Positions 19,766-59,610 of a stretch of 64,000 bases of DNA are shown piece by piece. The stretch lies in contig OZ246406.1 of the NCBI GenBank assembly GCA_965231045.1, positions 450,208 through 514,207 on the forward strand. Reading direction: 5' to 3'. Under the pieces are notes generated by a model. The model was not told the origin of the DNA. It made no database searches and saw only the letters and a list, made by a program, of their open reading frames with translations. The position numbers and the translations under genes were made by a program. This stretch comes from an uncultured Candidatus Saccharibacteria bacterium (lineage in GTDB: Bacteria; Patescibacteriota; Saccharimonadia; Saccharimonadales; JAGQNJ01). The stretch's first letter is position 1; every line of letters starts with the position of its first letter.

Positions 19766-19790
19766 CAAAAAAGCACCTCGTGTGAGATGC
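19766..19790 (-). terminator. intrinsic terminator after the displaced tmRNA 3'-end copy
   Basis: Minus strand reads GCATCTC-ACAC-GAGGTGC followed by TTTTTT. Confidence 0.6.
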
Positions 19791-19796
19791 GATTTT

Positions 19797-19815
19797 TGGT
19801 GGAGCTGCCGAGTAC
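19797..19815 (-). repeat. 19-nt exact duplicate of the tmRNA 3' end (T-stem 3' strand + acceptor + ACCA)
   Basis: TGGTGGAGCTGCCGAGTAC at 19797-19815 is identical to 19969-19987. Similarity continues into the GATTTT flank. Confidence 0.9.
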
Positions 19816-19930
19816 GAACTATTTTGCGCCTAGGGACAAAATTGCTTCGCAATTGCCCATGGCGGCCAAGCAAGGATTCCTCAAACTGCCACTGGCAGTT
19901 CTCACCCTCACGGCCAGCACTCGAACGTCA

Positions 19931-19966
19931 AACAAAAAATCTCCATTCCATAAGGAATCGAGATTT
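19931..19966 (-). terminator. intrinsic terminator 2 nt after the tmRNA 3' end (inside the insert)
   Basis: Minus strand reads AAATCTC-GATTCCTTATGGAATG-GAGATTT followed by TTTGTTTG. Confidence 0.5.
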
Positions 19967-19968
19967 TG

Positions 19969-20381
19969 TGGTGGAGCTGCCGAGTACTGCCCTCGGGTCC
20001 GTCAGTTTATCTTTGTTAGTCTTCTACAGGTTTAGTCTATCTAAGTGTCTTAGGAGTATGTCTCAAGATAGACAGAAAAACATATTCCGCAGACTCTAAA
20101 GTCTTGGCACTAATAAGGAGTCAACTTATCAATGGGCATCCAGAAAATATGACATGCGTATTGAAATATCTGGCGTCATTCAAAGCACGGCTCCGGTAAT
20201 TAAACTGAAGCTGTTACGGTCTGAAGCTGTAGACCTGTAAATGCGTTAGCAAATACAGAAGCTACGCTCTTCAAACCGCGAGTAATAGCGTTTGCAATTA
20301 CTGGGTTTTGCCTATAACGCTGACAAGCGACCTGCAAGATCTAACTGATAAAGTCCAACGTCGAGCTTAAAATTCAGCCCC
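19969..20381 (-). ncRNA. ssrA: tmRNA (SsrA), 413 nt
   Basis: 5' GGGGCUGAAUUUUAAGCUCGACG and 3' CCGAG-GGCAGUA-CUCGG-CAGCUCC-A-CCA. The acceptor pairs GGGGCUG/CAGCUCC with the G3:U Ala identity pair. Candidate resume context UAAUU-GCA-AAC-GCU resembles E. coli UAGUC-GCA-AAC-GAC. Confidence 0.88.
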
Positions 20382-20425
20382 GTAACCGTTATTATACCAT
20401 AAAAACTATGATTTTTGCAATATGC

Positions 20426-20668
20426 TTAAGCTTGCGGTAATTTGAGACCAAGTTCGCCCATGTAGAACTTCACTTCTTCATATGAGTAAGGCGAAGTGTC
20501 TCCCACAATGTTGCCTTGTATATCTAGGCTTTTATCACTTGGAACAACCGTAATGTGCACTGCATCCATCCTAAGTTCTGGGCACACTTCCCACAATTCG
20601 GCTTTGGCAGCATCGCGAACTTGCCGCGCGGCATCAAATTCTATTTGCGTAAATTTTCGTGGTGACAT
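20426..20668 (-). CDS. hypothetical protein (80 aa)
   Basis: ORF only. Confidence 0.4.
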   Translation of the reverse strand: MSPRKFTQIEFDAARQVRDAAKAELWEVCPELRMDAVHITVVPSDKSLDIQGNIVGDTSPYSYEEVKFYMGELGLKLPQA

Positions 20669-20745
20669 AAAAACGATAGTAAACCTCTTCTTTGTTTTTG
20701 CATAGTGCTTGTGTTTTATCTTTTTGGCTAGTTCATAATAATCAT

Positions 20746-21288
20746 ATGTTGCGACATCCCGACGGACAGCCTTTTACCTACCAAGAATTCAATGAGTTCT
20801 TGCCAGCACCGCAAGGCGAATTATTTGGATTGCCAGGTTTTTTACCAACTGAAACTGTTATGGGATTAGTAAATCTATCTGAAACCATTGGTGTGCGCAA
20901 ACATATATATACCTTTCCAGAGCCGCTGCCTGAGGATCATGATATCCCGCTGCCAATCGCAGAAGCTGTCAGCACAGTAAGTCGATGGGTTCCAGTAAAT
21001 ACCGCTATCCTAAAGCGATACGCTACAGATGAGCCGAGCCAAGCCTTCTATCCTCACGAAGACCCAGAAGTTTTCAAGCAACACTGGCTAGTACTAATAA
21101 GTTTAAGCGGCGAAGCAGTTTTGTCCTTACACAATTCAGTGCATGGCATAGAGAGTGTCCCTTGTAGAACTGGAGATGTAATTTGTGTTGCACCTCAAAT
21201 GGTTCACAGTGTTACACCACCCTTGAACGAAGATGGTGTTCGCCACTTCCTGTTTCTCGGCTACGACAGTTCACTGCCAAGACAGTAA
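20746..21288 (+). CDS. 2OG-Fe(II) oxygenase superfamily protein (AlkB-like)
   Basis: Start moved to MLRHPDGQPF (ATG 20746). HxD (YPHEDP) ... GD ... H (MVHSV) ... R (GVRHFLF) pattern. Confidence 0.55.
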   Translation: MLRHPDGQPFTYQEFNEFLPAPQGELFGLPGFLPTETVMGLVNLSETIGVRKHIYTFPEPLPEDHDIPLPIAEAVSTVSRWVPVNTAILKRYATDEPSQAFYPHEDPEVFKQHWLVLISLSGEAVLSLHNSVHGIESVPCRTGDVICVAPQMVHSVTPPLNEDGVRHFLFLGYDSSLPRQ

Positions 21289-21343
21289 TTTCTTAGAACT
21301 TCTGGAAAAAACTCAGAAAATATGGCATTATCATCATTAAAGT

Positions 21344-23301: not shown

Positions 23302-23319
23302 CTGGTTTTAGTTTCCTCC

Positions 23320-24521: not shown

Positions 24522-24540
24522 ATTATAACATGAAAATCGT

Positions 24541-35296: not shown

Positions 35297-35370
35297 ATTC
35301 CCTACTAGTGTACTTGCTTATGGTTACCAGATACAAGACTTTATACAAATAAAAAGTTTACCAAAAAAAT

Positions 35371-35401
35371 TAAAAAGCCCAGCCGATGCTGCGCTCTTTT
35401 T
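35371..35401 (-). terminator. intrinsic terminator after the displaced tRNA-Glu 3'-end copy
   Basis: Minus strand reads AGCGCAGC-ATCG-GCTGGGCT (one mismatch) followed by TTTTTAATTTTTTT. Confidence 0.5.
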
Positions 35402-35419
35402 GGTGACCTCAAGGGGAAT
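35401..35419 (-). repeat. 19-nt exact duplicate of the tRNA-Glu 3' end
   Basis: TGGTGACCTCAAGGGGAAT at 35401-35419 is identical to 35531-35549. Confidence 0.9.
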
Positions 35420-35530
35420 GTTGCTTCGCAACCGTTCGTTCCACTCACGAACGAACCGCCTGACGGGCTTCGAGCTCGCCTTTGGCGAGCAACCACGCAA
35501 AAGCCCGAGTACACAACTCGGGCATTCACG
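35420..35530 (+). repeat. 111-nt insert between tRNA-Glu and its 3'-end duplicate; partial member of the G+C-rich repeat family
   Basis: Collinear with copy A: GAACCG 35453/4735, GAC.GGCT(T)CG, GCAACCAC 35489-35496/4763-4770, CAAA(A)GC, and ACACAAC 35511-35517/4781-4787. Hairpins are GTTGC-TTC-GCAAC, CGTTCGT-TCCACTC-ACGAACG and GCTCGCC-TTT-GGCGAGC. Confidence 0.55.
35497..35523 (-). terminator. intrinsic terminator 8 nt after the tRNA-Glu 3' end (inside the insert)
   Basis: Minus strand reads GCCCGAG-TTGTGTA-CTCGGGC followed by TTTTG. Confidence 0.6.
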
Positions 35531-35605
35531 TGGTGACCTCAAGGGGAATCGAACCCCTATTGCCAGGATGAAAACCTGGTGTCCTAACCGTTAGACGATG
35601 AGGCC
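35531..35605 (-). tRNA. tRNA-Glu (anticodon UUC), CCA encoded
   Basis: GGCCTCATCGTCTAACGGTTAGGACACCAGGTTTTCATCCTGGCAATAGGGGTTCGATTCCCCTTGAGGTCACCA folds as a cloverleaf. Anticodon stem CCAGG/CCTGG, loop UUUUCAU. Confidence 0.9.
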
Positions 35606-40944: not shown

Positions 40945-40966
40945 GAATACTGCTTATTTTAATTTA

Positions 40967-41809
40967 CTAATCTATTTCCGGCAAAACATATTCAAACTCA
41001 AGACCAGAACTTTTTGTATATAAATCATATATATCTTCGCTAAAAGCTTTCACTTTCTCTAGCCCTGTATAAAGATCAGTATAAACAGGTATGCTAGCCT
41101 TTGAACCTTCAAAAGGCTCAAAATCAGTCCCCTCGAAAGGAGTAAAAGGCTCACCCCAAGCCTGCATCATATTATAAATGTGGCTATCTACTATAGTTGC
41201 CCAGTGATTGTAACCATTTGCTAGTGACCATCTTACACAGGTGGAGTAAAGCACTGCGCTTGCACCATCCTTTGAATGGCCACTAGAATACTCTGGCATT
41301 ACAGCCATGGTAGTAATATCAACTGTATGATCAGGATCATATCCCATTTCAAGTTTTCTTTTTTCAGGTGAATCATCTTGCGATTTCCAAAGACTATTTG
41401 GTGCAACTATAGCATCAATCGTTATTAGCGAGTCATTTACTGGCTTAACAATCCTGATATTGCCTACCGGCTTTTGATTCTCATAATCTACAATTATCAA
41501 GAAAGTACTTGCCTCATCATATGGTTCATACATTTCTTTCATTTTGCCAATGTCATTTTTAAAACGCACCTCAAAGTTTTTCCATTCAATAAACCTAGCA
41601 ATATCAGATAATGGATTACTGCCGTCTACAATGTGAACGCCAAGATTTCTCCCCTGACGTATTTCATCGCTTGGGGTCAATTCACCAATTAATTCACTGA
41701 TTCGTTCTGGTTGCAAAGCTTCTATTGACCAATCAGCAACCCAGTCAGAAGAAGTATTGTCTATGTGTGGTCTTTCGGCATCAATCGAACTTTGTATATC
41801 TAAAGACAT
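40967..41809 (-). CDS. GNAT-fold (Acetyltransf_5 / N-acyl amino acid synthase-like) protein
   Basis: The pattern ...YEPYDEASTFLIIVDYENQKPVGNIRIV... and ...DITTMAVMPEYS... resembles the OlsB/LuxI-like acyltransferase fold. Assignment is tentative. Confidence 0.45.
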   Translation of the reverse strand: MSLDIQSSIDAERPHIDNTSSDWVADWSIEALQPERISELIGELTPSDEIRQGRNLGVHIVDGSNPLSDIARFIEWKNFEVRFKNDIGKMKEMYEPYDEASTFLIIVDYENQKPVGNIRIVKPVNDSLITIDAIVAPNSLWKSQDDSPEKRKLEMGYDPDHTVDITTMAVMPEYSSGHSKDGASAVLYSTCVRWSLANGYNHWATIVDSHIYNMMQAWGEPFTPFEGTDFEPFEGSKASIPVYTDLYTGLEKVKAFSEDIYDLYTKSSGLEFEYVLPEID

Positions 41810-42150
41810 TAAAATTCCTTGTAATCAAGATCTGTGGCTTCAAAAAAATCGTGCGTAAAGTTAATCGCATCTTGAACATCAAACTTCTTACAAGTATAAA
41901 TATCAACGCTAAAAAATAAAATGGGCTGTTCCCAGGCATAAAAATGAGCCCCAGAACTCTCCCAGTGAATCCAACCAGCCTCACCATATTTATCGGAACG
42001 GTGCGTAACTGGATCTAGCAAGGTCTTCATACCAATAACATCAGACAGCTTTGACAAATATTGCTTGATTTCATGAGCAGTTATATTTTTCTTTGGATAG
42101 CCTTCAATTACTGCTCTTTGTCTATAAATTTGTGGCGCAAGATCTCTCAT
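41809..42150 (-). CDS. S-adenosylmethionine decarboxylase-like pyruvoyl enzyme (SpeH/AdoMetDC fold)
   Basis: WESSGAHFYAWEQ...VDIYTCK aligns to ESH-LTIHTWPE...IDLFTCG of class-1 AdoMetDC, including the E-S self-cleavage site. Confidence 0.6.
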   Translation of the reverse strand: MRDLAPQIYRQRAVIEGYPKKNITAHEIKQYLSKLSDVIGMKTLLDPVTHRSDKYGEAGWIHWESSGAHFYAWEQPILFFSVDIYTCKKFDVQDAINFTHDFFEATDLDYKEF

Positions 42151-42183
42151 GTATTTCCTAGGTTTATGCTTAATGATTTATGT

Positions 42184-42231
42184 ACAAAAAATACGACATG
42201 ACAGAGGAATAAGATCCTCACATGTCGTATT
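42184..42231 (-). terminator. intrinsic terminator after the ABC operon
   Basis: 11-bp stem AATACGACATG/CATGTCGTATT with an inner GAGGA/TCCTC helix, followed on the minus strand by TTTTTTG. Confidence 0.7.
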
Positions 42232-42292
42232 CAATCTTCTAAAGTACAAATAATATTTTAGCAAATTATAGTCAATAGATCAACTACAATGT

Positions 42293-43033
42293 TTATGGTT
42301 TAATTACGCTTCCGTCTCTTAGCTCAATCACTCTTTCAGCATGGTTCTTTATATTTGGCTCATGTGAGACGCAGATGATAGATGTACCTGCATATTGGGT
42401 AATATCAAAAAAGAGTGATAATGTTCTCTCCGTCATCTTTGAGTCAAGGGCTGCCGTAGGCTCATCGGCAACAACAAGTTCGGGTCTATGCGCAAACCCA
42501 GCAACGATGGCTACTCTTTGAGCCTCACCACCAGATAGCGCTCCAGCATATTTTCCTAGATGTTTCGAAATCTCTAAATTATGAATCAAGAAGTCAAGCC
42601 ACTCTGGATCCAGTTTATTACCCCTGGCTTGTTGCGGTAATTTTATGTATTGTTCCGCAGTTAAATATGGGTCTAGATAAGGATTCTGAGCAATGTATCC
42701 AAGATATCTTGAGCGATATGCAGCCAGGTAACGTTCCGCTTTTGTTTCTAGTCTTAACTTTTTAACTGCCCTACCTAGAGTTGATTCAGATACCATGGAC
42801 CTATTAACAAATGATCCCTCATTAATACCAGTATGACTAACAGAACCTTCTGTAGGTTTTTGAAGACCGTGAATTACAGACGCAAACGTGCTTTTCCCGG
42901 CACCAGATGGACCAATTATTGCTGTAAAGCCAGAATGAAAATCAACCGATACATCATCTAAAACAATTGCGCCTTCCCTTACTACACTAACACCTTCTAC
43001 TTTAATGATTGGGTCACTTTCTAAACTACTCAT
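42293..43033 (-). CDS. ABC transporter ATP-binding protein
   Basis: Walker A GPSGAGKST, signature LSGGEAQR, Walker B LVVADEPT. Confidence 0.88.
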   Translation of the reverse strand: MSSLESDPIIKVEGVSVVREGAIVLDDVSVDFHSGFTAIIGPSGAGKSTFASVIHGLQKPTEGSVSHTGINEGSFVNRSMVSESTLGRAVKKLRLETKAERYLAAYRSRYLGYIAQNPYLDPYLTAEQYIKLPQQARGNKLDPEWLDFLIHNLEISKHLGKYAGALSGGEAQRVAIVAGFAHRPELVVADEPTAALDSKMTERTLSLFFDITQYAGTSIICVSHEPNIKNHAERVIELRDGSVIKP

Positions 43034-44511
43034 AGAGTATGCCCCTTGCTAAGATCCATATTTGAAGCCTCGCGTCGTATAGCTATAGCCGTCCCAGCCT
43101 TATTTATTCCATAATTTATTCCTACAATACAAAGAACAGTCTTAACACTCGGAGCCAATGCGGCTCCAGGAATACCAGTATTAGTATATACATCCGCTAG
43201 TAGCACAACTGGTATAGCAATAAGGGATGAGTATAGTGCCTCTGATTCAGCAATTTCTGAATACTTTTTACTAAGTGCATGCTTATCCAGTCCATTAGCA
43301 CCCCAGACAGTGTTAATTCGTGTATTTTCTTTTAACCTATTCCTAGCCCTATTACCTAAGGCTGCTGCCGCAAGCAATGATGCGACCGTCATTGCCTGAA
43401 GAACCAACGGGTTAACACTGTTTTCACCTGTTTCTTTACTATTCTGTACGAATTTATCAACAGGAACAACAAATGCACGATCTGTTAGAGTGTCTGGGGA
43501 AAGCCCTTGCTCAGCCAAAAGTTTTTGAATCTCAGTTTTTTGACCTTGTGCAAGTATTAGAGAATATGGCTGATCTGGGGTATTTCTAACACAGCGTGCA
43601 AAATCTTCATTATTAAATAGTACAGGTAGTAGGTTTAACCCACTTTTCTCCTCAATAACATTATTAACAGTTAAAGTCAGCCCATCCATAGTAAAGGTTT
43701 CACCCTTTTTGACGCCAAGCTCTTTTGCAACATCTACAGAAATTTCTTTACATTCTTTATCAGCAAGTGGAATTTGTGTTGTTTCACTTGGCAAACTACC
43801 TGTAAGTAGTTGGATTTTTGTCCCTTCTTCACCCTTACGCTGGCCAGAATGCCACTCCCAGGTTCCTGGCACTGCCGTTATATTATGCTCTTTGGCATGT
43901 GCTAAAAATCCATTTGCTCTATTAATTGAAATACTAGTGTTATTAGCTAATTCTGGTACTGGAGTATTAGATATAACATAATTTCCAATATTATCACTTG
44001 GTCTTTCCGCCCCAAGTATATTCGCGAAATAATCAGCAACTTTTGCTTGTGAACTACTTACTTCGTGAGCAGTATCAACAAAATTACCTATCATTGCACC
44101 CGTACCTACAACGATCAAGCTTGCTTGTGCGACCCTTCTACCAACCGAACCTCTTGACTGATTTCTGGCATGAGCCATTTCATGTATAGCTTGATCCTCA
44201 GAGCTAAACGCCCGCCTAATATGCCCGACGCCCCTCTTAACAAGTAATCCAGCTCCTAAAATTGCTCCGCCTTCCACAGCTAAATTAAAAGCATTTGCTA
44301 GCCCATCAGATGGGCTAACTGAATCGCTCGCAGTGCTGACTATAGGGCTGTCAAGATTTGTGTTTTCGTGCGTAACAACACCCACTCCTGCAGCCACACC
44401 TCCGAGCATAATTAAACCCGTAGCAACTTGTCCAAATTTTCGCCTTAAAGCATTGTTATATTCAGATTGAGACCCAGATTCAGCACCACCAATTTTAGCT
44501 AGTTCAGACAT
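43030..44511 (-). CDS. FtsX/MacB-like ABC permease with large extracytoplasmic domain
   Basis: N-terminal TM, an ~300-aa extracytoplasmic region, and C-terminal TM cluster. ATGA coupling to the ATPase gene. Confidence 0.6.
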   Translation of the reverse strand: MSELAKIGGAESGSQSEYNNALRRKFGQVATGLIMLGGVAAGVGVVTHENTNLDSPIVSTASDSVSPSDGLANAFNLAVEGGAILGAGLLVKRGVGHIRRAFSSEDQAIHEMAHARNQSRGSVGRRVAQASLIVVGTGAMIGNFVDTAHEVSSSQAKVADYFANILGAERPSDNIGNYVISNTPVPELANNTSISINRANGFLAHAKEHNITAVPGTWEWHSGQRKGEEGTKIQLLTGSLPSETTQIPLADKECKEISVDVAKELGVKKGETFTMDGLTLTVNNVIEEKSGLNLLPVLFNNEDFARCVRNTPDQPYSLILAQGQKTEIQKLLAEQGLSPDTLTDRAFVVPVDKFVQNSKETGENSVNPLVLQAMTVASLLAAAALGNRARNRLKENTRINTVWGANGLDKHALSKKYSEIAESEALYSSLIAIPVVLLADVYTNTGIPGAALAPSVKTVLCIVGINYGINKAGTAIAIRREASNMDLSKGHTL

Positions 44512-44575
44512 TTAATTCTCACTTAATTTAACTAATTTTATGAGTATATGCCTCTATTGTCAATTATATTGTATT

Positions 44576-45514
44576 TTATGTCTGTCTAGGCTCAATTGTA
44601 TACTTATGAAAAAAGTTGCATGTTCCTAGAGTAAGCATAAACATCCTTAGTTCATCAAGGCCGTAGTCCGGGCCCAGATTTACATACGTATATCCTTGCT
44701 CAATGAATCTTTTTGCAAACATATATCCCAGTATTTCAAAACCAAAGGTAAGCCTGTTGGTAGCTTTAATATGCTTCATGACAACATACTTACCGTCGCT
44801 TGAGGGTTGATAGAGACAAAATCCCCAAATTTTGCCGTTAACAAATAGGCATAGATTATCCACTCCAAGCTTATCAGAGTTAATAATATAATTCTCAATG
44901 CACTCACCCTCTATAGAGCCAAAGTCATTTAGTTTATTTTTTACTCTCCATTTAGCTGCTGCATTTAGTAAAAGATCTCTCTCTGATTTAACTTGCAGAT
45001 CTAAACTTGTTACCGATATCTTTTTATCTTCTAAAAAGTTAATAACTTTAGCTGCTACGCGTTGCCAGTGTGGCGCCATATTTTTCAGCGGATAGAAATG
45101 GGAAAGTGGCAACACATATTCATTCAAATGTCTTTGCTCTTTAAACGTATACATATCATGATATCTGATAAAACTAAGCACGAACTCTGGAACATTTACT
45201 AGTCTCGCTGGATCACCTTTTTCTCTTAGATAATCGAAAATTGCACATATAGACTCATCAATTTTTCTAGTCCCAACAATTGATAGACCAGTATTTTCTT
45301 CATCTCCAGGCATCCAATACGGTATTACCAGATTTCCATTAAGCTCACTAACCGATATATCGCCTAGAGGGTTCCACCATGACATTAATCCTGGGAAAGA
45401 AATATCATATATGGGTGGATAATTTCGAATTGCCAACTCATATTCGTCCTTTTTTTCCCATGTTAATTTACTAAACTCTGGGAAGGATTTGAAAGTAGAA
45501 AGCCTGGTCTTCAT
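44576..45514 (-). CDS. soluble DUF2156 (LPG-synthase C-terminal / aa-tRNA-dependent transferase fold) protein, paralog 1
   Basis: 312 aa with no TM. NYPPIYDISFPGLMSWWNPLG...LSIVGTRKIDESI... and C-terminal NLGPDYGLDELRMFMLTLG fit the DUF2156 pattern. Clear paralog of 46433-47416. Confidence 0.55.
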   Translation of the reverse strand: MKTRLSTFKSFPEFSKLTWEKKDEYELAIRNYPPIYDISFPGLMSWWNPLGDISVSELNGNLVIPYWMPGDEENTGLSIVGTRKIDESICAIFDYLREKGDPARLVNVPEFVLSFIRYHDMYTFKEQRHLNEYVLPLSHFYPLKNMAPHWQRVAAKVINFLEDKKISVTSLDLQVKSERDLLLNAAAKWRVKNKLNDFGSIEGECIENYIINSDKLGVDNLCLFVNGKIWGFCLYQPSSDGKYVVMKHIKATNRLTFGFEILGYMFAKRFIEQGYTYVNLGPDYGLDELRMFMLTLGTCNFFHKYTIEPRQT

Positions 45515-45632
45515 CTGGGCAACCTCTTATTGCCCCTTGTTATATATTAATTTCGCTAAAAATACAACGATAAGCATCACTTTTATTTGAACGATCTACT
45601 ATTTATCTGTTACATTTAATTAAACTAAGCTT

Positions 45633-46016
45633 ATGCAGTCTAAACAAAAAATAGTAATCGTAGAGGATGAGCCGTCGATACAAGAAATGTATCGGATGAA
45701 GTTAAACTTATCCGGGTTTGACGTACAAACCGCAAATAATGGCGAAGATGGGCTAAAAGTAATCGATGCTTTTGAACCTCACCTGATTTTGCTCGATCTT
45801 AAGATGCCAGTTATGAGTGGTGACATCATGCTTGAAAAACTGCGTGAGACCAAAAAAGGCGCAGAGATTCGTGTAATAGTTCTCACAAACATTAGTCGTG
45901 ATGAAGCGCCACACAATCTGCGATTCCTAAATGTTGATCGGTATATTGTAAAAGCACATTACACACCGACACAGGTGATAAATGTCGTTGAAGAAGTTCT
46001 TGGTATAAAGAAGTAA
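45633..46016 (+). CDS. stand-alone response-regulator receiver protein (CheY-like), copy 1
   Basis: 127 aa. EDE acidic pair, phospho-Asp context ILLDLKMP, VLTN, and VKA Lys. Confidence 0.85.
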   Translation: MQSKQKIVIVEDEPSIQEMYRMKLNLSGFDVQTANNGEDGLKVIDAFEPHLILLDLKMPVMSGDIMLEKLRETKKGAEIRVIVLTNISRDEAPHNLRFLNVDRYIVKAHYTPTQVINVVEEVLGIKK

Positions 46017-46052
46017 GCTTGCAGTTGTAAGTAATAAGCGTACCATGAGGAT

Positions 46053-46421
46053 ATGGGTGCTAGGATCGCAATACTTGAAGATGATCAGCCCATACGCGAG
46101 ATGTATGAGCTCAAACTGAAGAGTGCCGGATACACTGTTAAAGCAGCCGGTGACGGCGTTCAAGGCCTAACGCTTTTGGAAAAATTCAGGCCTGACTTAA
46201 TACTTCTCGACCTTATGATGCCAGAAATGAACGGTGATGAAGTCGCCGAAAAGGTTCGCTCAACTAAGTGGGGAGCAAAAACAAAAATTATTGTTCTGAC
46301 TAATATTAGTTTGGATGAAGCGCCTGAAAAGTTACAAAAACTTGGAATACTAGATTATGTTGTCAAAGCCAATCACACACCTTCCCAGGTTATCGAAATA
46401 GTTCAAAACGCATTACATTAA
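46053..46421 (+). CDS. stand-alone response-regulator receiver protein, copy 2
   Basis: 122 aa. EDD, ILLDLMMPEMNG, VLTN, VKA. Confidence 0.85.
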   Translation: MGARIAILEDDQPIREMYELKLKSAGYTVKAAGDGVQGLTLLEKFRPDLILLDLMMPEMNGDEVAEKVRSTKWGAKTKIIVLTNISLDEAPEKLQKLGILDYVVKANHTPSQVIEIVQNALH

Positions 46422-46432
46422 AAAATGTAAGA

Positions 46433-47416
46433 TTACCTAATTCTTCTTTTAACCCCATAGTAGCGCCTACTCTTCACATAAGATTCTTCCGGTCGGACAG
46501 TATACTTTTTAAATGCATTTTTTGGCCTTAAAGAAAGTAGGTGAGCTCGATATTTTGGGTCACCTATATGTATAACCATATTTACGAATTTCGCGTTTTC
46601 TTTAGTAAATAATTCTGCCATCTTGTAGCATGCAAAGCTATGTGATCCAGGCACATCGAATGTAAATCCAGAGTACTTTATTACCTTATAGTTGCTATTT
46701 AGAGGTGATTCATATAATGAAAAGCTATTGATTTCATCATCTATATAAAGCGAAACAACTTCTGTGCCAAGTTTGGTTGCATTGTTAATTGAATACAGGA
46801 ATGCATTCTCTGCGTGACTTGGAAGACAATTAACTTCAGCTTTTTCTTTCCAGTCAAAATAACAGTTAATTATTAACTCTCGGTTTTCTGGCTTACTGAG
46901 ATCTATCTTTTTTAGGTCAACCCTTTTCCCTTTTGTGGCTCGTAAAAAGCTTCCGACTTTGATTCGTAGAAATATTGGCATTGACTTAATTTCTGCCGTT
47001 TCTTCGACCAACAATAAGGATTCTACGTAGTCAGGCTCATCCTCACAGCCAAACATCTCGGGGTACCTAATGTGTCCTAGTACAAAATCTGGTACGTGAA
47101 CTAGCTTACTTTCCTGGTCTTGAGCTTTTTGGTAATCAAAAATTTCGCAAATTGATTCGTCAATTTTATTAGTGCCCACCAGTGAAAGTCCTGAGTTTTC
47201 GTCATCTCCGGGCAGCCAATATGATATGACCAAGTTCCCGTGAATTTGTGAAACCTTACAATTACCAAGTGAGCTCCACCAACTCATTAAACTCGAAAAA
47301 GAGATTTCCGAGATTGGTGGATAATCTCGAATTAAGGCATTGTAAGCATCTCTATCAGACAACTTTAATTCATAAAACTCTGGAAATTCTGGGAGAACGA
47401 GTGGCTTTATCTTCAT
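46433..47416 (-). CDS. soluble DUF2156-like protein, paralog 2
   Basis: 327 aa. DYPPISEISFSSLMSWWSSLG...LSLVGTNKIDESI, collinear with paralog 1. Confidence 0.55.
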   Translation of the reverse strand: MKIKPLVLPEFPEFYELKLSDRDAYNALIRDYPPISEISFSSLMSWWSSLGNCKVSQIHGNLVISYWLPGDDENSGLSLVGTNKIDESICEIFDYQKAQDQESKLVHVPDFVLGHIRYPEMFGCEDEPDYVESLLLVEETAEIKSMPIFLRIKVGSFLRATKGKRVDLKKIDLSKPENRELIINCYFDWKEKAEVNCLPSHAENAFLYSINNATKLGTEVVSLYIDDEINSFSLYESPLNSNYKVIKYSGFTFDVPGSHSFACYKMAELFTKENAKFVNMVIHIGDPKYRAHLLSLRPKNAFKKYTVRPEESYVKSRRYYGVKRRIR

Positions 47417-47521
47417 ACAACACCTTTCGTTAGCCTTAAAATAGCACTAATAACTACAGGGGTCAACAGATATCAGTAAAATGTTATTGAGTTAGTATCA
47501 ACAATGCCGTAGGATTAATAT

Positions 47522-47893
47522 ATGTCGGCCAAGATCGCAATCATAGAAGACGATCAAGCTATTTCTCAGATGTACCGCATCAAATTTGAGGCGGAAGGTT
47601 TTGTTGTCGAGACTGCCGAAAACGGCAAACTTGGATTAGAACTTGCCGAAAATATGAAGCCAGATATTATTCTGCTGGACCTTATGATGCCAGAAATGAA
47701 CGGCGATGAAATGCTGTCCAAACTCCGCAAAACCCCGTTTGGCAAAAATACAAAAGTAGTCATCCTTACCAACATGGGCGAGCAAGAAGTCCCAGAAGAA
47801 GTTAAGAAACTTGGTGTTGTGGCAATTATTCTTAAGGCTGATATGACACCGCGCCAGGTAGCTGAACTTGTTAAGAAACAACTCAACAAATAG
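47522..47893 (+). CDS. stand-alone response-regulator receiver protein, copy 3
   Basis: 123 aa. EDD, ILLDLMMPEMNG, ILTN, LKA. Confidence 0.85.
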   Translation: MSAKIAIIEDDQAISQMYRIKFEAEGFVVETAENGKLGLELAENMKPDIILLDLMMPEMNGDEMLSKLRKTPFGKNTKVVILTNMGEQEVPEEVKKLGVVAIILKADMTPRQVAELVKKQLNK

Positions 47894-47911
47894 AACTGTT
47901 ACAATATTCAT

Positions 47912-49267
47912 ATGCGAATAGCGATTTTAGGATATGGGGATCAAGGACGTAGTGCCTTTGAGTACTGGAACAAGTCAGAAAATCAGATTACAATCTGCGA
48001 TCAAATTTTGCCAGATGATTTACCTGAAGGCGTTGATACCAAGTCTGATGGTGATTATTTAAGTAACTTGCATGAGTTTGACATGCTAGTTCGTACTCCA
48101 GGTCTTCACCCAACGGAAATCTTAAAAGCCAACGAATTGCACCCAGAAGTAATGGAAAAAGTAACAACCGTTACCAACGAGTTTTTTCGTGTTTGTCCGG
48201 CTCCAATCATTGGTATAACCGGAACAAAAGGCAAAGGAACAACCTCGAGTCTAATCGCTGCTTTTTTGCAGCAAGCGGGTAGACGCGTTCATCTAGGCGG
48301 CAATATTGGCATACCACCTCTTGACCTACTAAAGAATAACATCCAGCCGGATGATCTCGTTGTACTCGAACTAGCCAATTTTCAGCTTATTGATCTAAAG
48401 TATTCACCGCACATTGCCGTATGTCTTATGATTACGCCAGAACACCTCAACTGGCATCCTGATATGTTTGAGTACGTAAATGCCAAAAAGCAAATGTTTA
48501 TTCATCAACAAGTACATGATCTTGCAGTCTATAACAGTGCTAATCTTTACTCGCAAGAAATCGCTGATAGCTCGCCAGGCTATAAGTTAACTTATGAAGT
48601 CCCCTTGCCTGATCAGGACCCAACAGATGAAGATGGATTTTACGTCAAGGATGACCATATATTTGTAGCTGGTGAAAAAATTTGCAGCACTCATGATATC
48701 CTCCTACCCGGACGTCATAATTTAGAGAATATTTGTGCGGCACTTGCTGCAGTCTGGGAACTTATTCGCGAAGACAAACACATTGTCAAAGAGGTATTAA
48801 AGACATTTGCTGGCTTGCCACACCGTTTGCAGACAGTACTTAACTATGGCGGCGTACAAATCATTGATGATTCATTTGGCACAACTCCTGAAACCGCAAT
48901 CGTGGCTATCGATGCCTTTAAACAACCAAAAATTATGATTGTTGGTGGTTCGGATAAGGGATCATCATATGAAGAGATGGCTCAAAAAATTGTAAAAAGT
49001 AATGTTAAGTACCTGGTAGCCATTGGTGAAACTGGTCCAAAGATTGTCGATCTAGTTAAAAAATACTCGAATTACCGCAACGTCCCTTTCATTGTGCTTG
49101 ATGAAACTGTGAAAATGCCCGAGATCTTAGCTGTTGCACTTCAGCAGGCAAAAAAGGGTGACATGGTAATGTTATCAACCGGTAGCGCCAGCTTTGGAAT
49201 GTTTGCAAACTACAAAGATCGTGGCGAGCAATTTCAAGCCGCAGTTAAAGCCTTACCGACTGCCTAA
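47912..49267 (+). CDS. murD: UDP-N-acetylmuramoylalanine--D-glutamate ligase
   Basis: GITGTKGKGTT P-loop and Mur-ligase middle/C-terminal domains (GLPHRLQ). Confidence 0.85.
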   Translation: MRIAILGYGDQGRSAFEYWNKSENQITICDQILPDDLPEGVDTKSDGDYLSNLHEFDMLVRTPGLHPTEILKANELHPEVMEKVTTVTNEFFRVCPAPIIGITGTKGKGTTSSLIAAFLQQAGRRVHLGGNIGIPPLDLLKNNIQPDDLVVLELANFQLIDLKYSPHIAVCLMITPEHLNWHPDMFEYVNAKKQMFIHQQVHDLAVYNSANLYSQEIADSSPGYKLTYEVPLPDQDPTDEDGFYVKDDHIFVAGEKICSTHDILLPGRHNLENICAALAAVWELIREDKHIVKEVLKTFAGLPHRLQTVLNYGGVQIIDDSFGTTPETAIVAIDAFKQPKIMIVGGSDKGSSYEEMAQKIVKSNVKYLVAIGETGPKIVDLVKKYSNYRNVPFIVLDETVKMPEILAVALQQAKKGDMVMLSTGSASFGMFANYKDRGEQFQAAVKALPTA

Positions 49268-52606: not shown

Positions 52607-52642
52607 CTCGTCAGAGCAAGCCCAAAGCCTCACTCTGACGAG
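52607..52642 (+). other. perfect 10-bp hairpin abutting the tRNA-Lys 5' end
   Basis: CTCGTCAGAG (52607-52616) / CTCTGACGAG (52633-52642). The last G is tRNA nt 1. The upstream GCGAGTTTACT 52598-52608 matches rc of copy A 4794-4803. Confidence 0.5.
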
Positions 52643-52718
52643 GGCCACTAGCTCAGCTGGTTAGAGCATCGGCCTCTTAAGCCGAGTGTCCTGGGTTCGA
52701 GTCCCAGGTGGCCCTCCA
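52642..52718 (+). tRNA. tRNA-Lys (anticodon CUU), CCA encoded
   Basis: GGGCCACTAGCTCAGCTGGTTAGAGCATCGGCCTCTTAAGCCGAGTGTCCTGGGTTCGAGTCCCAGGTGGCCCTCCA. Anticodon loop CUCUUAA. Confidence 0.9.
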
Positions 52719-52731
52719 ATACATTGTCAAT

Positions 52732-52758
52732 AATGCCATAACATGGCATTATTTTATT
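52732..52758 (+). terminator. intrinsic terminator 14 nt after tRNA-Lys
   Basis: AATGCCAT-AAC-ATGGCATT followed by ATTTTATT. Confidence 0.6.
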
Positions 52759-52869
52759 ATTGTGACTACCTTTAGTGCAGAGAATGGAAATAATTGGCAC
52801 ATTGAACGAGCAGAAATAGACCCATATTTTGCAGCTGAGACATGTAGAGAGATTGGCCAATTAGCATCT

Positions 52870-53328
52870 ATGGAGCTAGAACTTCCTGATGGGGTAATCT
52901 CCTCAAGGTTACTAGTAGATGGTCGAAGGCTATCTGGATTTCAGTGCTGTGTTGAGCCAGCGCTTGATACAGACCGTGACGGTCTTTTAAATTATCCGGA
53001 GTTTGCCGCGAGAGTACCAAATTTACTTAAGCTCTTTCATCTACGGCGTAAGACTGTCGGGAGTACAGTGCCGGGTTTTGGGATTAACATACTTGGTTCA
53101 CACGGATTTATCCAGACACACAGAGACGCCTATCTGTCCCCATCAAGTGCTACGGTCTTAGAAGGTGAGTCCACAACTACTATTACCGATCCGATAACTG
53201 GCATAGAACGTATATTTACACTAGCTGTTGGCGACTCCTTTACTCTGCAAAATACCGCAGGTAGTCCACCCCCTTTACACGGAGCGCGTAACTTAAAATC
53301 TAAACGACGAATTACATTTGTTATTTAA
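52870..53328 (+). CDS. 2OG-Fe(II) oxygenase-like protein (start uncertain: ATG 52870 or GTG 52762)
   Basis: HxD (QTHRDA) ... GD ... H (PLHGA) ... RRITF pattern. The track's ATG at 52708 overlaps the tRNA and is rejected. Confidence 0.5.
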   Translation: MELELPDGVISSRLLVDGRRLSGFQCCVEPALDTDRDGLLNYPEFAARVPNLLKLFHLRRKTVGSTVPGFGINILGSHGFIQTHRDAYLSPSSATVLEGESTTTITDPITGIERIFTLAVGDSFTLQNTAGSPPPLHGARNLKSKRRITFVI

Positions 53329-53470: not shown

Positions 53471-53515
53471 AATGGTTAAAAGAGGCGGGGAGCGTCTTTT
53501 TGTTATGATAGAGGT

Positions 53516-56545: not shown

Positions 56546-56584
56546 AGCCTATATTGTACCTACTTACTGTGTTATCCAAAAACT

Positions 56585-57073: not shown

Positions 57074-58346
57074 GGATATATTGTCTCACTTTGTAGACTA
57101 GCGAACCAATTAAATAAAATGATCCTGTAATAAGTATGATATCCTCTGGCTGTTTTAGTAATTCTTCGAATGCATCATCGGTGTTTTTTATTGATTGAAC
57201 CCTAGAAAAGCCTGCTTTCTTGCATCCAGAAACCAATTCCGTACTTGGCATGACTTTATGCGGCAGGTCAGTACTAGCCATAAATTCAGTCGTAATTACA
57301 TTGTCCGAAATACTGTGCAAGATTGTGAGGCTAACATCAAGAGTTGCCTGCTTACTTTCCATGAATGCTATTAGTAGAGCATATGATTTATCTGGGAATA
57401 ATTTTTTCAGGCTGCTAACTAGAGCATTTAGTTTCTGAGGATTATGTGCGCCATCAATAACTAATGTTTTGTTGCCTATTTGTACGTGCTGTAATCGGGC
57501 TGGAATAATAGTTTTTTGTGAATCTAGAAGTATTTCGGTATCGAGTTTATTAAGCCCGTCCCGATTAATCACAAACTCGGCAACTTGTTGTGCGAGTAAC
57601 CAGTTCCTCTTTTGATAGTCGGGCAAGTCACTGTTTAGTCGAGCATTTCTGTGCAACTCAACTTCATCCAGTCGATGTAGTATGGCTTTTGATTCTTTAA
57701 CTTGCTTATCAATTACATCGTTTAAGATTTTATTTTGGTCATAACAAAAAACATTATTACCTGATTTTATTATTCCGGCTTTTTGAAAAGCAATTTTTTC
57801 TAGTGTGTCGCCAAGAATTCGGGTATGATCGAGGCCAATATCGGTAATAACTGCAACTTTGTCGCGATCATCTATTATATTAGTTGCGTCTTTGAGGCCT
57901 CCCAAACCAACCTCCATGACTACATGAGTGCAGTTCATTCTGGCAAATACAAATAGTGCAAACGTAATCACGCATTCAAAATACGTTGGTTTGAGCTCGA
58001 TCAAACCAGGCGTATTAATAAACTCTGTGAACAGCTCGCACATTTCAGACTCTTTTAATGGAACGTTATTAATTTGAATGCGCTCATTAATTTGAAAAAC
58101 ATGTGGCGAAACACTCAGCCCAACCTTTGCGCCGCTAGACTTGAGCAATTCTGCAATGTAGTAACAGGTTGAGGTCTTGCCAGAAGTTCCTGCAACATGA
58201 ATGATCTTAAATTTGTTTTGTGGATTATCAACTAGTGGCAAAAGTTCATACATTTTTTGTGGATTATAAAAATCGCCATCAAGAATAGAACCAGGTACAA
58301 ACTGTCGTAAATACTTATTTAGCTCTTCAAAACTACTAACTTTCAT
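57066..58346 (-). CDS. folC: folylpolyglutamate synthase/dihydrofolate synthase (Mur-ligase family)
   Basis: HVAGTSGKTST P-loop and EVGLGG. Overlaps folA by 8 nt. Confidence 0.75.
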   Translation of the reverse strand: MKVSSFEELNKYLRQFVPGSILDGDFYNPQKMYELLPLVDNPQNKFKIIHVAGTSGKTSTCYYIAELLKSSGAKVGLSVSPHVFQINERIQINNVPLKESEMCELFTEFINTPGLIELKPTYFECVITFALFVFARMNCTHVVMEVGLGGLKDATNIIDDRDKVAVITDIGLDHTRILGDTLEKIAFQKAGIIKSGNNVFCYDQNKILNDVIDKQVKESKAILHRLDEVELHRNARLNSDLPDYQKRNWLLAQQVAEFVINRDGLNKLDTEILLDSQKTIIPARLQHVQIGNKTLVIDGAHNPQKLNALVSSLKKLFPDKSYALLIAFMESKQATLDVSLTILHSISDNVITTEFMASTDLPHKVMPSTELVSGCKKAGFSRVQSIKNTDDAFEELLKQPEDIILITGSFYLIGSLVYKVRQYIHG

Positions 58347-58377
58347 CCGACCTATATTGTACTTTAGAATGTAATAA

Positions 58378-58785
58378 CTAACGTGCTATTAGTAACAAAA
58401 CCGCTGCTATCGCAATAATACTTAGTGCAACTATAATTGTCTTGGGATCGGCAATGAAAAGGTTGGTTTTGGTTTTAACACCGTTGTTTTCTAGTAAACT
58501 TCTAACTTCTTTTAAGGATTTTGGATCTGATAAACTTTTTCTGGCATAAACTAAACTATAATTTGCGGGTTTTATGCCCCTTATAACATAACTGCCCCCG
58601 CTGGTCTTTAACCGAACATAATTTGCCGAAAATTCGGCAAGACTAATTGATGATAGGGGCGTATTAAGCAGTACAGCCTCACCTTCCCTTACAACGATAA
58701 CTTGTGGAGTAACCAAGAGTTCTTTACTTAGGTTTGTAGAACCATAGTTACAAATCAAATTCAGTTCTTTTTCATTAGCCTGCAT
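58378..58785 (-). CDS. hypothetical protein with C-terminal TM anchor
   Basis: ORF with C-terminal IIVALSIIAIAAVLLLIA. Confidence 0.45.
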   Translation of the reverse strand: MQANEKELNLICNYGSTNLSKELLVTPQVIVVREGEAVLLNTPLSSISLAEFSANYVRLKTSGGSYVIRGIKPANYSLVYARKSLSDPKSLKEVRSLLENNGVKTKTNLFIADPKTIIVALSIIAIAAVLLLIAR

Positions 58786-58828
58786 ATTATATCCTTATTG
58801 TATTCATCTTAATATAATACCAATACTA

Positions 58829-59344
58829 TTACTTAGCTAGTTCGTTTAGATATTTTTGCGCTCTTTTTGAAACAGACTTATGAGGATCGCTCATCAGCCT
58901 CTTTAGTTGTTTTGAATAATCTGTAGCTAGGCTGGTGTTTTCTTTAACAAACTTGTACATTATTTCAATGCTAAAATTGAGTACTATCCAATCAGTGGCA
59001 TGTTCTAGGTTAGACCTAAGAATTTCAATGGCTCTTTTAGTTTGTATTTCATTTAGATCAAGTTCTCCCATCATTTGCACCAAATGCCACTGTACTGATG
59101 GCTGGTCAATTTTATAAACTTCAGTTTGTAATCTATCAATATAATCACTGAACCAATCCGGATGTACTCGACAAATTTTTTCCAGTGCATCACCGGCACG
59201 CATCCTGACAAGCTCATCACTAACAAATAAACAGTCAAATAGTGTTTTTAGTTCGCCAGGGTTTTCAAAGACAAAATGGATAACTTCTTCTGTGTGACCA
59301 AGACTATTTGGATGCCCACCAGTAAGCAAAAGTTCGATGTTCAT
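58829..59344 (-). CDS. HEAT-repeat protein (DNA alkylation repair AlkD-like, tentative)
   Basis: 171 aa, all-helical repeat character. Weak resemblance to PF08713 proteins. Confidence 0.4.
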   Translation of the reverse strand: MNIELLLTGGHPNSLGHTEEVIHFVFENPGELKTLFDCLFVSDELVRMRAGDALEKICRVHPDWFSDYIDRLQTEVYKIDQPSVQWHLVQMMGELDLNEIQTKRAIEILRSNLEHATDWIVLNFSIEIMYKFVKENTSLATDYSKQLKRLMSDPHKSVSKRAQKYLNELAK

Positions 59345-59386
59345 AAATCTATGGTAACAGACAGCCTGTGGTTAATCGTATTGCAC

Positions 59387-59403
59387 GGTACACCGGGAGG
59401 GAT
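59387..59403 (-). repeat. 17-nt exact duplicate of the tRNA-Arg 3' end
   Basis: GGTACACCGGGAGGGAT at 59387-59403 is identical to 59535-59551. Confidence 0.88.
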
Positions 59404-59494
59404 AATCGCACATTAATCTGTGCGCCGAGAATCTCGGGCAACAGACTAATGACCGAACCCTGGATCGAATCCCTGCTCGAAATGTCGAGCTAAA

Positions 59495-59519
59495 ATATAA
59501 AACCACCCATTCTGGGTGG
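59495..59519 (-). terminator. intrinsic terminator 14 nt after the tRNA-Arg 3' end (inside the insert)
   Basis: Minus strand reads CCACCCA-GAA-TGGGTGG followed by TTTTATATTTT. Confidence 0.6.
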
Positions 59520-59533
59520 CAAAATATTTTACC

Positions 59534-59610
59534 TGGTACACCGGGAGGGATTCGAACCCCCGACCCTCTGTTCCGAAGACAGATGCTCTAATCCGCTGAG
59601 CTACCGGTGC
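59534..59610 (-). tRNA. tRNA-Arg (anticodon UCG), CCA encoded
   Basis: GCACCGGTAGCTCAGCGGATTAGAGCATCTGTCTTCGGAACAGAGGGTCGGGGGTTCGAATCCCTCCCGGTGTACCA. Anticodon loop CUUCGGA. Confidence 0.9.

Follow-up and report, generated by a model that had tools for sequence, protein, structure and literature searches.

Why should every stable-RNA gene in a stretch of bacterial DNA be followed by a second copy of its own 3' end? The question is raised by a 64,000-nucleotide (nt) piece of contig OZ246406.1, from an uncultured Candidatus Saccharibacteria bacterium, which we call the window and which carries four such genes, those for transfer-messenger RNA (tmRNA, ssrA) and for the transfer RNAs (tRNAs) tRNA-Glu(ttc), tRNA-Lys(ctt) and tRNA-Arg(tcg). 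A first-pass annotation of this DNA had described at each of them a terminator behind the CCA, an insert and then an exact repeat of the gene's 3' end. Our answer, which we hold tentatively and with a confidence slightly short of even, is that each repeat is a scar at the junction of a small, non-autonomous insertion module of a kind that enters the T-loop of stable-RNA genes while the gene is kept working, in a process that would operate at the DNA level and would be aimed by an antisense segment, here called the splint.

The repeats themselves are indeed exact. We compared the last 30 nt of each gene with the 3 kilobases (kb) that follow it and took the longest exact match, recovering 19 nt for ssrA (GTACTCGGCAGCTCCACCA, at 19969 and 19797, copies separated by 153 nt), 19 nt for tRNA-Glu (ATTCCCCTTGAGGTCACCA, at 35531 and 35401, separated by 111 nt) and 17 nt for tRNA-Arg (ATCCCTCCCGGTGTACC, at 59535 and 59387, separated by 131 nt), the second tRNA-Arg copy lacking the terminal A. 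The tRNA-Lys repeat measures 10 nt (TGGCCCTCCA), or 11 nt with the A after CCA, and lies at 52709 and 53460 with 740 nt between. Within the 64 kb all four strings are unique to their two sites. The chance expectation of a given 17-19-mer in 3 kb is about 1e-6 to 1e-8, while the tRNA-Lys repeat is weak by itself (chance about 0.001-0.03). Chance or artefact as the source of the repeats was rejected, given that they are exact and unique in the window and that independent Logan assemblies are 100% identical. The three long blocks start in the T-loop, as the first-pass annotation had it, and in relatives such blocks are 19-22 nt long. Its description of inserts that open with terminators holds as well: a hairpin with a T-run stands 1-13 nt past CCA at all four genes, called by a scan for Glu (35523-35503), Lys (52729-52753) and Arg (59520-59502) and recognised by eye for ssrA (19934-19967), where a bulged G made the simple scan miss it.

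That all four genes of the window carry the arrangement is real, but it is not a rule. A tRNA-Arg(tct) gene of this genome, located just past the window, carries a 22-nt repeat and a canonical module with the core that we call type A below, whereas tRNA-His (L209:6800-6876; L numbers denote the relative and metagenome contigs used for comparison) is followed by a terminator only, with no repeat. "Four of four" therefore reflects a high clade-wide frequency. About 8 kb past the right end of the window (L209:645-831), tRNA-Gly(tcc) abuts tRNA-Arg(tct), and the type-A module then follows.

How high this frequency is can be judged from relatives. The pyruvate kinase gene directly downstream of tRNA-Glu has its nearest relatives, at 55-72% identity, exclusively in Saccharibacteria (TM7, candidate phyla radiation or CPR) metagenome-assembled genomes (MAGs). 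Among 38 tRNA-Glu genes from 80 loci not selected by the core pattern, seven are followed, 98-215 nt downstream, by at least 13 nt that exactly repeat their own 3' end; upstream or opposite-strand matches of the same genes never exceed 11 nt. We then pooled all comparison loci, which gave 152 tRNAs flanked by 250 nt or more, and counted repeats of at least 12 nt within 400 nt. A copy of the 3' end lies downstream of 54 of them and a copy of the 5' end upstream of 51, against 2 and 3 in the wrong-side controls. The mirror-image upstream form, which the first-pass annotation did not contain, is thus about equally common, and the target should be described as the T-loop or D-arm and not as "tRNA 3' ends". 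Both forms occur together in 16 tRNAs, where about 18 are expected under independence; we accordingly rejected the idea that they are halves of one composite element.

Empty sites, which had been proposed as something to look for, exist at tRNA-Glu. The gap between this gene and pyruvate kinase is 64-99 nt in five relatives (L019, L033, L038, L076, L079) and 234 nt in the window. The window and the empty-site relative L038 have a leader motif in common, CCATAAGCAAGTACACTAG, which in the window lies past repeat copy 2 and its terminator; hence the extra DNA of the window consists of the tail of the first copy, terminator 1 and the module. The conserved form of this motif, (G/A)CCATAAGCAAGTACACTAG, stands just ahead of the pyruvate kinase start in the window (35305-35371, minus strand), L038, L033 and L019, and may be a leader or regulatory element of that gene. 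In one Saccharimonas MAG (L052:1107-5807) tRNA-Glu(ttc) occurs three times at intervals of 2.1-2.5 kb, which suggests a tandemly repeated unit that includes the tRNA.

The tRNA-Lys site is best understood through L205, the only close relative that is informative on filled versus empty states, since the other strain-level relatives found (L204, L206-L211) are 100% identical to the window. L205 carries the open reading frame (ORF) of the tRNA-Lys insert, an ORFan, at 88% identity, together with the window-type tRNA-Lys 3' end and terminator, but as a displaced fragment. Ahead of this fragment stand the last hairpin of a type-A core that is partly deleted and, further upstream, another tRNA-Lys(ctt) allele, which has a terminator of its own. 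In place of the window's CCTCC|TGGCCCTCCA, L205 has a different tRNA-Lys leftover, GTTCTAGTCCCTGGTG. The presence of different leftovers at the equivalent place makes the window Lys repeat a genuine older scar and the ORFan a cargo. A search of 5.8 billion proteins gave only two relatives of the ORFan, and it belongs to no Pfam family.

What lies between the repeats has a fixed inner anatomy, another point that goes beyond the first-pass annotation. We compared about 100 examples side by side. In the downstream form the order is intact gene, terminator, spacer, splint, sense copy, core, displaced gene segment up to CCA, and resident terminator. Terminator 1 has the format A-tract, hairpin, T-tract, its stem usually extended to pair with CCA, and the spacer behind it is short, at times with a hairpin. 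The splint, 12-21 nt long, is antisense to about positions 60 to 44 of the tRNA and spans the insertion point as the complement of a T-arm without interruption; the sense copy comprises 8-12 nt of the T-arm, about positions 44-54; and the displaced segment starts at position 55 in type A or 58 in the Glu and Arg modules of the window. All three short window modules (ssrA, Glu, Arg) match this plan, with a splint:T-arm duplex of -20 to -21 kcal/mol. The upstream form runs from the resident promoter through positions 1-54, the core, positions 55 to about 64 and an antisense segment of about 58 to 49 to a -10 box, 8-13 nt ahead of +1, and the intact gene. Hence one form supplies a terminator right past the intact gene, and its mirror supplies a -10 box. 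Terminator 1 could be part of the mobile unit, but its likeness across different tRNAs may come simply from a common format, with TTGG pairing to CCA.

The splint covers the 54|55 junction in 27 of 36 downstream forms (the longest is 21 nt). In 20 of 26 cases it prefers the intact T-arm over the adjacent sense copy, the median duplex energy over positions 40-62 being -24 kcal/mol. Several copies also show pairing between the CAC of the splint and the first GUG of the core, and in the minimum free energy fold of the ssrA module the splint pairs with the start of repeat copy 2. Cores are also found in the D-arm of upstream partial copies (L046, L098, L107, L124), and in L098 the D-arm antisense segment again spans the uninterrupted site. 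One pseudo-copy (L123) holds two cores, in the D-arm and the T-loop, and L186 has a full-length pseudo-tRNA-Glu with a T-loop core 3.1 kb from the intact gene. Insertions of the core only occur in pseudo-tRNAs (L046, L123, L186), and some cores are tandem or nested.

The outer ends of the repeats vary. In 36 of 43 downstream repeats identity ends within 10 nt of CCA, even where the tRNA part is identical at 21 of 21 positions, while in four young copies (L092, L148, L168, L171) identity extends across the entire terminator as far as the T-tract. Upstream repeats begin within 8 nt of +1 in 40 of 45; the one in L198 takes in 25 nt ahead of +1, including a TAAAAT box. Within the displaced fragment the core-proximal positions 58-64 are 94-100% conserved in relatives, a figure partly forced by anchoring the comparison on positions 56-64, and the acceptor/CCA part is 68-84% conserved per position and often truncated. 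Over the 21 compared positions (56-76), 14 of 31 displaced copies are identical.

The first reason to regard the core as a real object is its recurrence, which the first-pass annotation likewise had not described. A degenerate pattern for the type-A core, about 90 nt long, matches in at least 120 metagenome contigs. A tRNA adjoins the match on the same strand in about 95 of 131 cases, one core is inverted, and 17 isotypes are represented among the matches listed. The sole inverted core (L129:1722-1808) lies in an otherwise normal downstream layout at tRNA-Phe. Other matches fall in hairpin-rich RNA-like genes, and three are chance matches in an ABC-F gene. In 2.9 million viral contigs the pattern has only 3 chance matches, all in coding DNA, and a viral origin of the type-A core was rejected for want of a true match there.

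The second reason is covariation. An alignment of 84 distinct type-A cores yields three helices. The aligned cells are paired in 96.5% of cases, as compared with 75.8% in shuffled and 28-48% in slid controls, and the covariation score is 0.529 versus 0.148 (shuffled) and 0.04-0.09 (slid). Compensatory double changes occur in 22 of 32 pairs, and one G.U pair is invariant. Some of the invariance of the first helix, Pa, was built in by the search pattern, a bias from which helices two and three are free. Support of this kind is restricted to type A, since too few relatives are available for the window's Glu and Arg cores. A covariance model, R1, finds four matches in 1.18 Mb of relatives, all at tRNA-Glu, and the ssrA core as its sole significant match in the window. 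The ssrA core has its Pa helix in common with cores in L009 and L029, and GGGUGAGAAcUGCCnGUGGCAgUU in common with their tRNA-Glu inserts. A gathering scan of the window with Rfam 15 returns only the four RNA genes, and E-value scans of the ssrA insert and six canonical-core loci return tRNA, rRNA and noise only. A literature search gave no description of this architecture, the nearest being group I introns in Patescibacteria tRNA anticodon loops. The type-A core is, then, a real folded element that is absent from Rfam 15 and from the literature searched.

The pairing is also strand-specific. G.U outnumbers A.C by 62 to 11 in the cores, the invariant pair excluded, and by 38 to 8 in the splint:T-arm helices when these are selected on Watson-Crick pairs only (53 to 4 under an earlier scoring). 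This bias indicates that the structure forms on the tRNA-sense strand, either as RNA or as that DNA strand. Type A is not the only core: type B (CGCGCAG-hairpin-GAGCA) is found at Glu, Phe and Gly in the same layout, a Glu-type core is common to the window and L068, and many further cores are singletons.

Type-A cores are also seen away from tRNAs, in contexts like structured RNA genes with long imperfect hairpins (L097/L177, L199/L192, L103/L180, L144/L158/L163, L190, L154/L201). In L103 a 45-nt repeat flanks the core on both sides, in L190 a 16S-3'-end-like GTATCACCTCCT lies past the core, and between L097 and L199 the core orientation seems to be opposite relative to the same kind of host sequence. 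Rfam returned nothing at threshold for L097/L199, L103/L180, L144/L158/L163 and L190. Both the ssrA (19852-19842) and the Glu (35431-35421) modules contain, on the minus strand, TTGCGAAGCAA, a GCGAAGC mini-hairpin with a GAA triloop, which is unusually stable in DNA. The last helix of type-A cores is likewise closed by GNA-type triloops.

Two things are shown by these comparisons. Relative to empty sites the modules are non-autonomous insertions that leave the gene intact and contain both a core with a strand-specific fold and a stretch that is complementary to their target; and they form a family that is polymorphic between relatives, stacks serially, at times brackets cargo and has no recombinase of its own. 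In our tentative reading the splint would base-pair with the T-arm strand and thereby aim the insertion at the T-loop, less often at the D-arm, and the core would act as a strand-specific folded recognition scaffold, as RNA or single-stranded DNA (ssDNA), for a factor whose gene lies elsewhere in the genome. The gene would be completed by the copy of its segment that the module brings, while the resident segment would be pushed aside; with the gene restored in this way, the exact 3'-end repeat would be a by-product and not a functional site. Of the three explanations offered in the first-pass annotation, a non-autonomous miniature family mobilised in trans comes closest, only that its target is the T-loop or D-arm and not the tRNA 3' end. 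A bolder version, that this is a new class of mobile element in which a core with a programmable antisense guide homes to the T-loop or D-arm and brings along a replacement segment with a terminator or promoter, is in our opinion possible but doubtful.

Several observations weigh against our reading and should be stated plainly. The enzyme that would perform the insertion was found neither in the window nor near the 120 copies. The splint and sense copy lie between generic module parts, so how they come to match each new tRNA is left unexplained. The heterogeneous repeat ends, with four copies running through the terminator, fit a local duplication better than an imported segment. The strain-level relatives are all identical and give no sign of present-day mobility. 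Part of the invariance of Pa stems from the pattern by which the cores were collected, and the metagenome contigs with type-A cores carry no taxonomic classification. Save for L068, BLAST finds no relatives of the window's Glu and Arg cores in 2 Mb of loci, and the single-sequence fold z-scores are modest for ssrA (-1.6) and Glu (-1.55).

It is possible to do without dedicated machinery altogether. Transformation followed by homologous recombination between naturally competent Saccharibacteria might spread the modules, the universally conserved tRNA sequence serving as arms, entire on one side and as the displaced fragment on the other, and the core being kept as a useful RNA, for example in processing, insulating or neutralising the gene fragment. 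comEC-type competence has been reported for Patescibacteria (PMC13059738), which counts for this proposal. Most repeats stop sharply at the mature tRNA ends even at 21/21 identity, as expected if the homology of donor and recipient ends there; L205 has an intact tRNA-Lys of another allele than the displaced fragment, as though it had arrived together with the module; a recombinase was found nowhere searched; and the core structure is maintained by compensatory change, its preferred strand being the transcribed one. We nevertheless think it unlikely, since recombination explains neither the first origin of a module at a new isotype, tmRNA or other RNA gene, nor the constant junction at 54/55 or 57/58, nor the core-only insertions in pseudo-tRNAs. 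Its arms of at most 22-54 nt are very short for RecA, and transformation generally favours the loss of insertions. An RNA-mediated route appears improbable to us. Here an intron-like ribozyme core, with the splint as internal guide, would reverse-splice into the tRNA at 54/55, and the two forms would be DNA copies of half-products, core plus 3' exon (downstream) and 5' exon plus core (upstream). Like P1/P10 of group I introns, the splint does align the two sides of the insertion point, and the G.U-rich pairing of the sense strand, the CUUG-type loops and the invariant G.U pair suit such a route. So do repeat ends that coincide with mature tRNA ends or, in young copies, with the end of the terminator T-tract, and targets that are all stable, highly transcribed RNA genes. 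But no reverse transcriptase (RT) was found, and group II introns are reported absent from Patescibacteria (PMC13011429). The 25 nt duplicated ahead of +1 in L198 include a TAAAAT box that would escape transcription, cargo genes of 1-4 kb lie within the same junctions, one core (L129) is inverted, and an RNA of 90 nt is far below any known self-splicing intron and has no Rfam ribozyme match.

The remaining two accounts were both put forward in the first-pass annotation. Serial decay takes the modules for stubs of integrase-encoding prophages or islands that integrated at the T-loop and were then nearly all deleted. The identity block from T-loop to 3' end is, as Williams reportedly put it in 2002, the classical mark of elements integrating into tRNA and tmRNA genes, and serial scars and cargo-bearing versions do exist. 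Random deletion, on the other hand, would not leave the same ordered parts in more than 100 cases, nor would one expect a covarying 90-nt core at the same nucleotide beside 17 isotypes, upstream 5'-restoring forms as common as downstream ones, or a core that interrupts what should be an unbroken attR T-arm. Remnants of an integrase were not seen, and the 2.9 million viral contigs hold no true core match; we can give this account little credence. Least convincing to us, and very improbable, is that the extra 3'-end copy is itself selected, either as a primer-binding-site-like sequence on the opposite strand or as a guide on an RNA scaffold. A scaffold with about 20 nt identical to a target does resemble TnpB/Cas12-type guide RNAs, and the 14 of 31 copies identical over 21 positions would fit. 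Yet in relatives it is the acceptor/CCA part that decays, so the extra 3' end looks like a decaying by-product and not like a selected primer-binding or guide sequence; only the core-proximal 58-64 are conserved. The Arg copy of the window has lost its terminal A, the fragment of the upstream form lies on the other side of the core, and no nuclease or RT gene is associated. The actual complementarity to the tRNA sits in a separate antisense segment of the same strand.

The module parts in the window are listed in Table 1.

Table 1. RNA genes of the window and the parts of the modules beside them.
Feature	Position	Strand	Remark
tmRNA (ssrA)	19969-20381	-	Rfam RF00023, 62.2 bits; no ARAGORN call
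ssrA repeat copy 1	19969-19987	-	last 19 nt of tmRNA
ssrA terminator 1, AAAATCTCGATTCC TTAT GGAATGGAGATTTTTT	19934-19967	-	begins 1 nt past CCA; sequence reading
ssrA splint TTCGAGTGCTGGCC	19912-19925	-	complementary to tmRNA T-arm, duplex -21.4 kcal/mol
ssrA short sense copy	19906-19911	-	directly after splint
ssrA type-A core GGGUGAGAACUGCCAGUGGCAGUU...GCGAAGC	19840-19908	-	middle helix shortened; covariance model R1, 26.3 bits, E=1.6e-4
ssrA 24-nt tail ahead of copy 2	19816-19839	-	
ssrA repeat copy 2	19797-19815	-	displaced tmRNA segment, T-loop to CCA
ssrA terminator 2	19767-19790	-	scan 19790-19773; 7-bp stem and TTTTTT
tRNA-Glu(ttc)	35531-35605	-	ARAGORN and Rfam
tRNA-Glu repeat copy 1	35531-35549	-	last 19 nt of gene
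tRNA-Glu module overall	35420-35530	-	
tRNA-Glu terminator 1	35492-35527	-	scan
tRNA-Glu hairpin H1	35474-35490	-	
tRNA-Glu splint	35462-35473	-	duplex with T-arm -20.7 kcal/mol
tRNA-Glu sense copy GGCGGTTCG	35452-35461	-	
tRNA-Glu two-hairpin core	35420-35451	-	GCGAAGC mini-hairpin at end; homologous module in L068
tRNA-Glu repeat copy 2	35401-35419	-	tRNA positions 58-76
tRNA-Glu terminator 2	35372-35395	-	then conserved pyruvate-kinase 5' leader motif
tRNA-Lys(ctt)	52642-52718	+	ARAGORN and Rfam
tRNA-Lys repeat copy 1	52709-52719	+	
tRNA-Lys terminator 1	52729-52761	+	scan
ORFan cargo gene, 188 amino acids (aa)	52762-53328	+	between tRNA-Lys and old displaced 3' end; gene call in L204
Old tRNA-Lys scar TGGCCCTCCAA	53460-53470	+	
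Weak terminator-like hairpin past tRNA-Lys scar	53478-53501	+	
tRNA-Arg(tcg)	59534-59610	-	ARAGORN and Rfam
tRNA-Arg repeat copy 1	59535-59551	-	
tRNA-Arg module overall	59404-59533	-	
tRNA-Arg terminator 1	59491-59531	-	scan
tRNA-Arg hairpin H1	59475-59490	-	
tRNA-Arg splint AGGGATTCGATCC	59462-59474	-	duplex with T-arm -20.2 kcal/mol
tRNA-Arg sense copy AGGGTTCG	59454-59461	-	
tRNA-Arg two-hairpin core	59404-59453	-	module fold z-score -4.6
tRNA-Arg repeat copy 2	59387-59403	-	tRNA positions 59-75; no second terminator; next gene 43 nt on

Three observations concern the RNA genes themselves. A promoter-like site (TTGCCA, 17 nt, TATATT; 10 of 12 matches) at 59494-59522 on the minus strand overlaps terminator 1 of tRNA-Arg and faces the module, so that the T-tract of this terminator might double as the module's -10 box. 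ARAGORN is blind to the tmRNA in the window and in every locus, Rfam being positive (62 bits), and tmRNA genes of this clade may be under-annotated. Finally, the Logan assemblies break within tRNA-Arg(tcg) from both sides with a 29-nt overlap (59561-59589), L204 stopping at 59589 and L209 and L210 beginning at 59561, which points to a repeated or variable k-mer in the samples.

There are larger inserts besides the one at tRNA-Lys. In L084, L093, L134 and L186 distal repeats are found at a distance of 1.2-4.2 kb from the tRNA, again preceded by modules of remnant, terminator, splint and core. In L093 a 4.2-kb cargo between tRNA-Gln and the displaced 3' end encodes an AAA ATPase (374 aa) and an S8 peptidase (754 aa) at 2528-5913, a pair that looks defence-like, and in L155 a GNAT-like gene lies between two units. 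None of the 1-4 kb cargo inserts encodes a recombinase. The first-pass annotation saw no integrase in the 64 kb, and we agree: Pfam, covering 60 of the 63 ORFs of at least 80 aa (about 20 of those scanned have no Pfam match), finds no integrase, transposase or RT in the window, its content being housekeeping genes, a type I restriction-modification system and two-component regulators. All-versus-all clustering of 841 ORFs from 120 loci gave housekeeping neighbours only, with no recurrent recombinase, RT or nuclease, and neither TnpA (Y1 HUH) nor TnpB was seen in about 83 kb of the source genome (window, L206 and L209).

As for the neighbourhood, the restriction-modification system (4907-10871) comprises HsdR and an 862-aa fusion of HsdM and HsdS, whose genes are separated by one that encodes a SocA/Panacea antitoxin domain. 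The stretch from 40000 to 48000 has a low GC content (0.365-0.39 versus about 0.43), contains three single-domain response regulators, an ABC ATPase, a lysyl-phosphatidylglycerol-synthase-like gene and several ORFs without Pfam match, and may have been horizontally acquired.

Why the modules deserve attention is easy to illustrate. Saccharibacteria have genomes of about 1 Mb with single-copy tRNA genes, and here about one third of the tRNA genes carry modules, which makes these a major and so far unannotated part of CPR intergenic DNA. They contain at least one new structured-RNA motif with strong covariation, and they enter tRNA genes from both ends without a visible integrase. Their cargo, such as the defence-like ATPase/protease pair and the ORFans, may be a route of gene gain in ultra-small genomes, and the tRNA fragments they leave can confuse tRNA annotation and possibly assembly. 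If the doubtful proposal of a new class were true, integration would occur by a guide-directed recombinase or by a ribozyme chemistry that bacteria are not known to possess, the type-A core would represent a new class of functional RNA or ssDNA, and the cargo arrays would be an integron-like platform for gene capture on CPR tRNA genes. Should the splint direct insertion, the modules would offer compact, naturally retargetable DNA insertion at chosen sites.

It is useful, finally, to place the modules among known systems. They have much in common with the tyrosine-integrase elements of tRNA and tmRNA genes (prophages, islands, ICEs), namely the target, a repeat from T-loop to 3' end, a restored gene, older 3' ends pushed downstream and possible cargo. 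However, the modules have no integrase in cis or in the 64 kb and measure 110-220 nt. The attR of integrase elements is a contiguous hybrid T-arm, whereas a core of 30-90 nt parts the sense copy from the displaced fragment in every module. Those elements replace the 3' part only, while modules also occur as 5'-restoring forms with a promoter (51 of 152 tRNAs), and the antisense splint is a feature of the modules alone. The modules work like a tRNA-targeting integrative element, yet fall outside the integrase class on account of the missing integrase, the interrupted attR and the 5'-restoring forms.

With CIMEs, MITEs, REPINs (RAYT) and PATEs (IS200/IS605) they share being small, protein-less, multi-copy, hairpin-rich and strand-specific, and the likeness extends to presumed service in trans by a single-copy enzyme. 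Unlike these, the modules target the loop of a tRNA arm and not a short motif or REP site, they come with part of the target gene and a terminator or promoter, and no HUH enzyme was found. A conserved 4-5 nt motif of the PATE type is absent 5' of the core, where the left flanks vary (..GGG, ..TAGA, ..AAGT, ..CAGAGG, ..TTTGG). The guide of group I introns and the bridge RNA of IS110 are comparable in that a junction-spanning complementary segment lies beside a conserved scaffold and the guide varies from copy to copy so as to fit its own target. IS110, though, has an adjacent recombinase ORF and the modules have none; a group I intron is far larger than the core, which has no Rfam match, and the guide role of the splint, like any catalysis by the core, is putative. 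Integron cassettes with attC resemble the modules as small promoter-less units that form arrays by a fixed site, with cargo ORFs between sites, and attC is likewise a strand-specific folded site of conserved structure and variable sequence; the GTT/AAC of the T-loop resemble R boxes. In a test against the attC boxes (R'' RYYYAAC, R' GTTRRRY) the T-loop and splint of the modules read GTTCRAN / NTYGAAC, matching at GTT/AAC but not at positions 4 and 7. Moreover, their order is not R''-L''-L'-R', their platform is a tRNA gene and not attI, and no IntI was found.

Disrupted tRNAs of archaea offer a further parallel. In Caldiarchaeum (PMC3293823) and in a study of fragments (PMC9897764), tRNA fragments, including 5' ones, lie by an intact tRNA, insertions occur in D- and T-loops, and integration of mobile elements is the proposed origin. 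Those cases involve a 1.8-kb recombinase-encoding element, or protein-spliced introns in functional genes, whereas here the host is bacterial and the copies are partial and interrupted. A last comparison is with the group I introns in tRNAs of Patescibacteria (PMC13011429), which are of 200 nt and more, self-splicing, and located in the anticodon loop of a functional gene. They come from the same phylum and are likewise an intervening RNA element within tRNA gene sequence; the modules, in comparison, are cores of about 50-90 nt in the T-loop or D-arm of non-functional partial copies.

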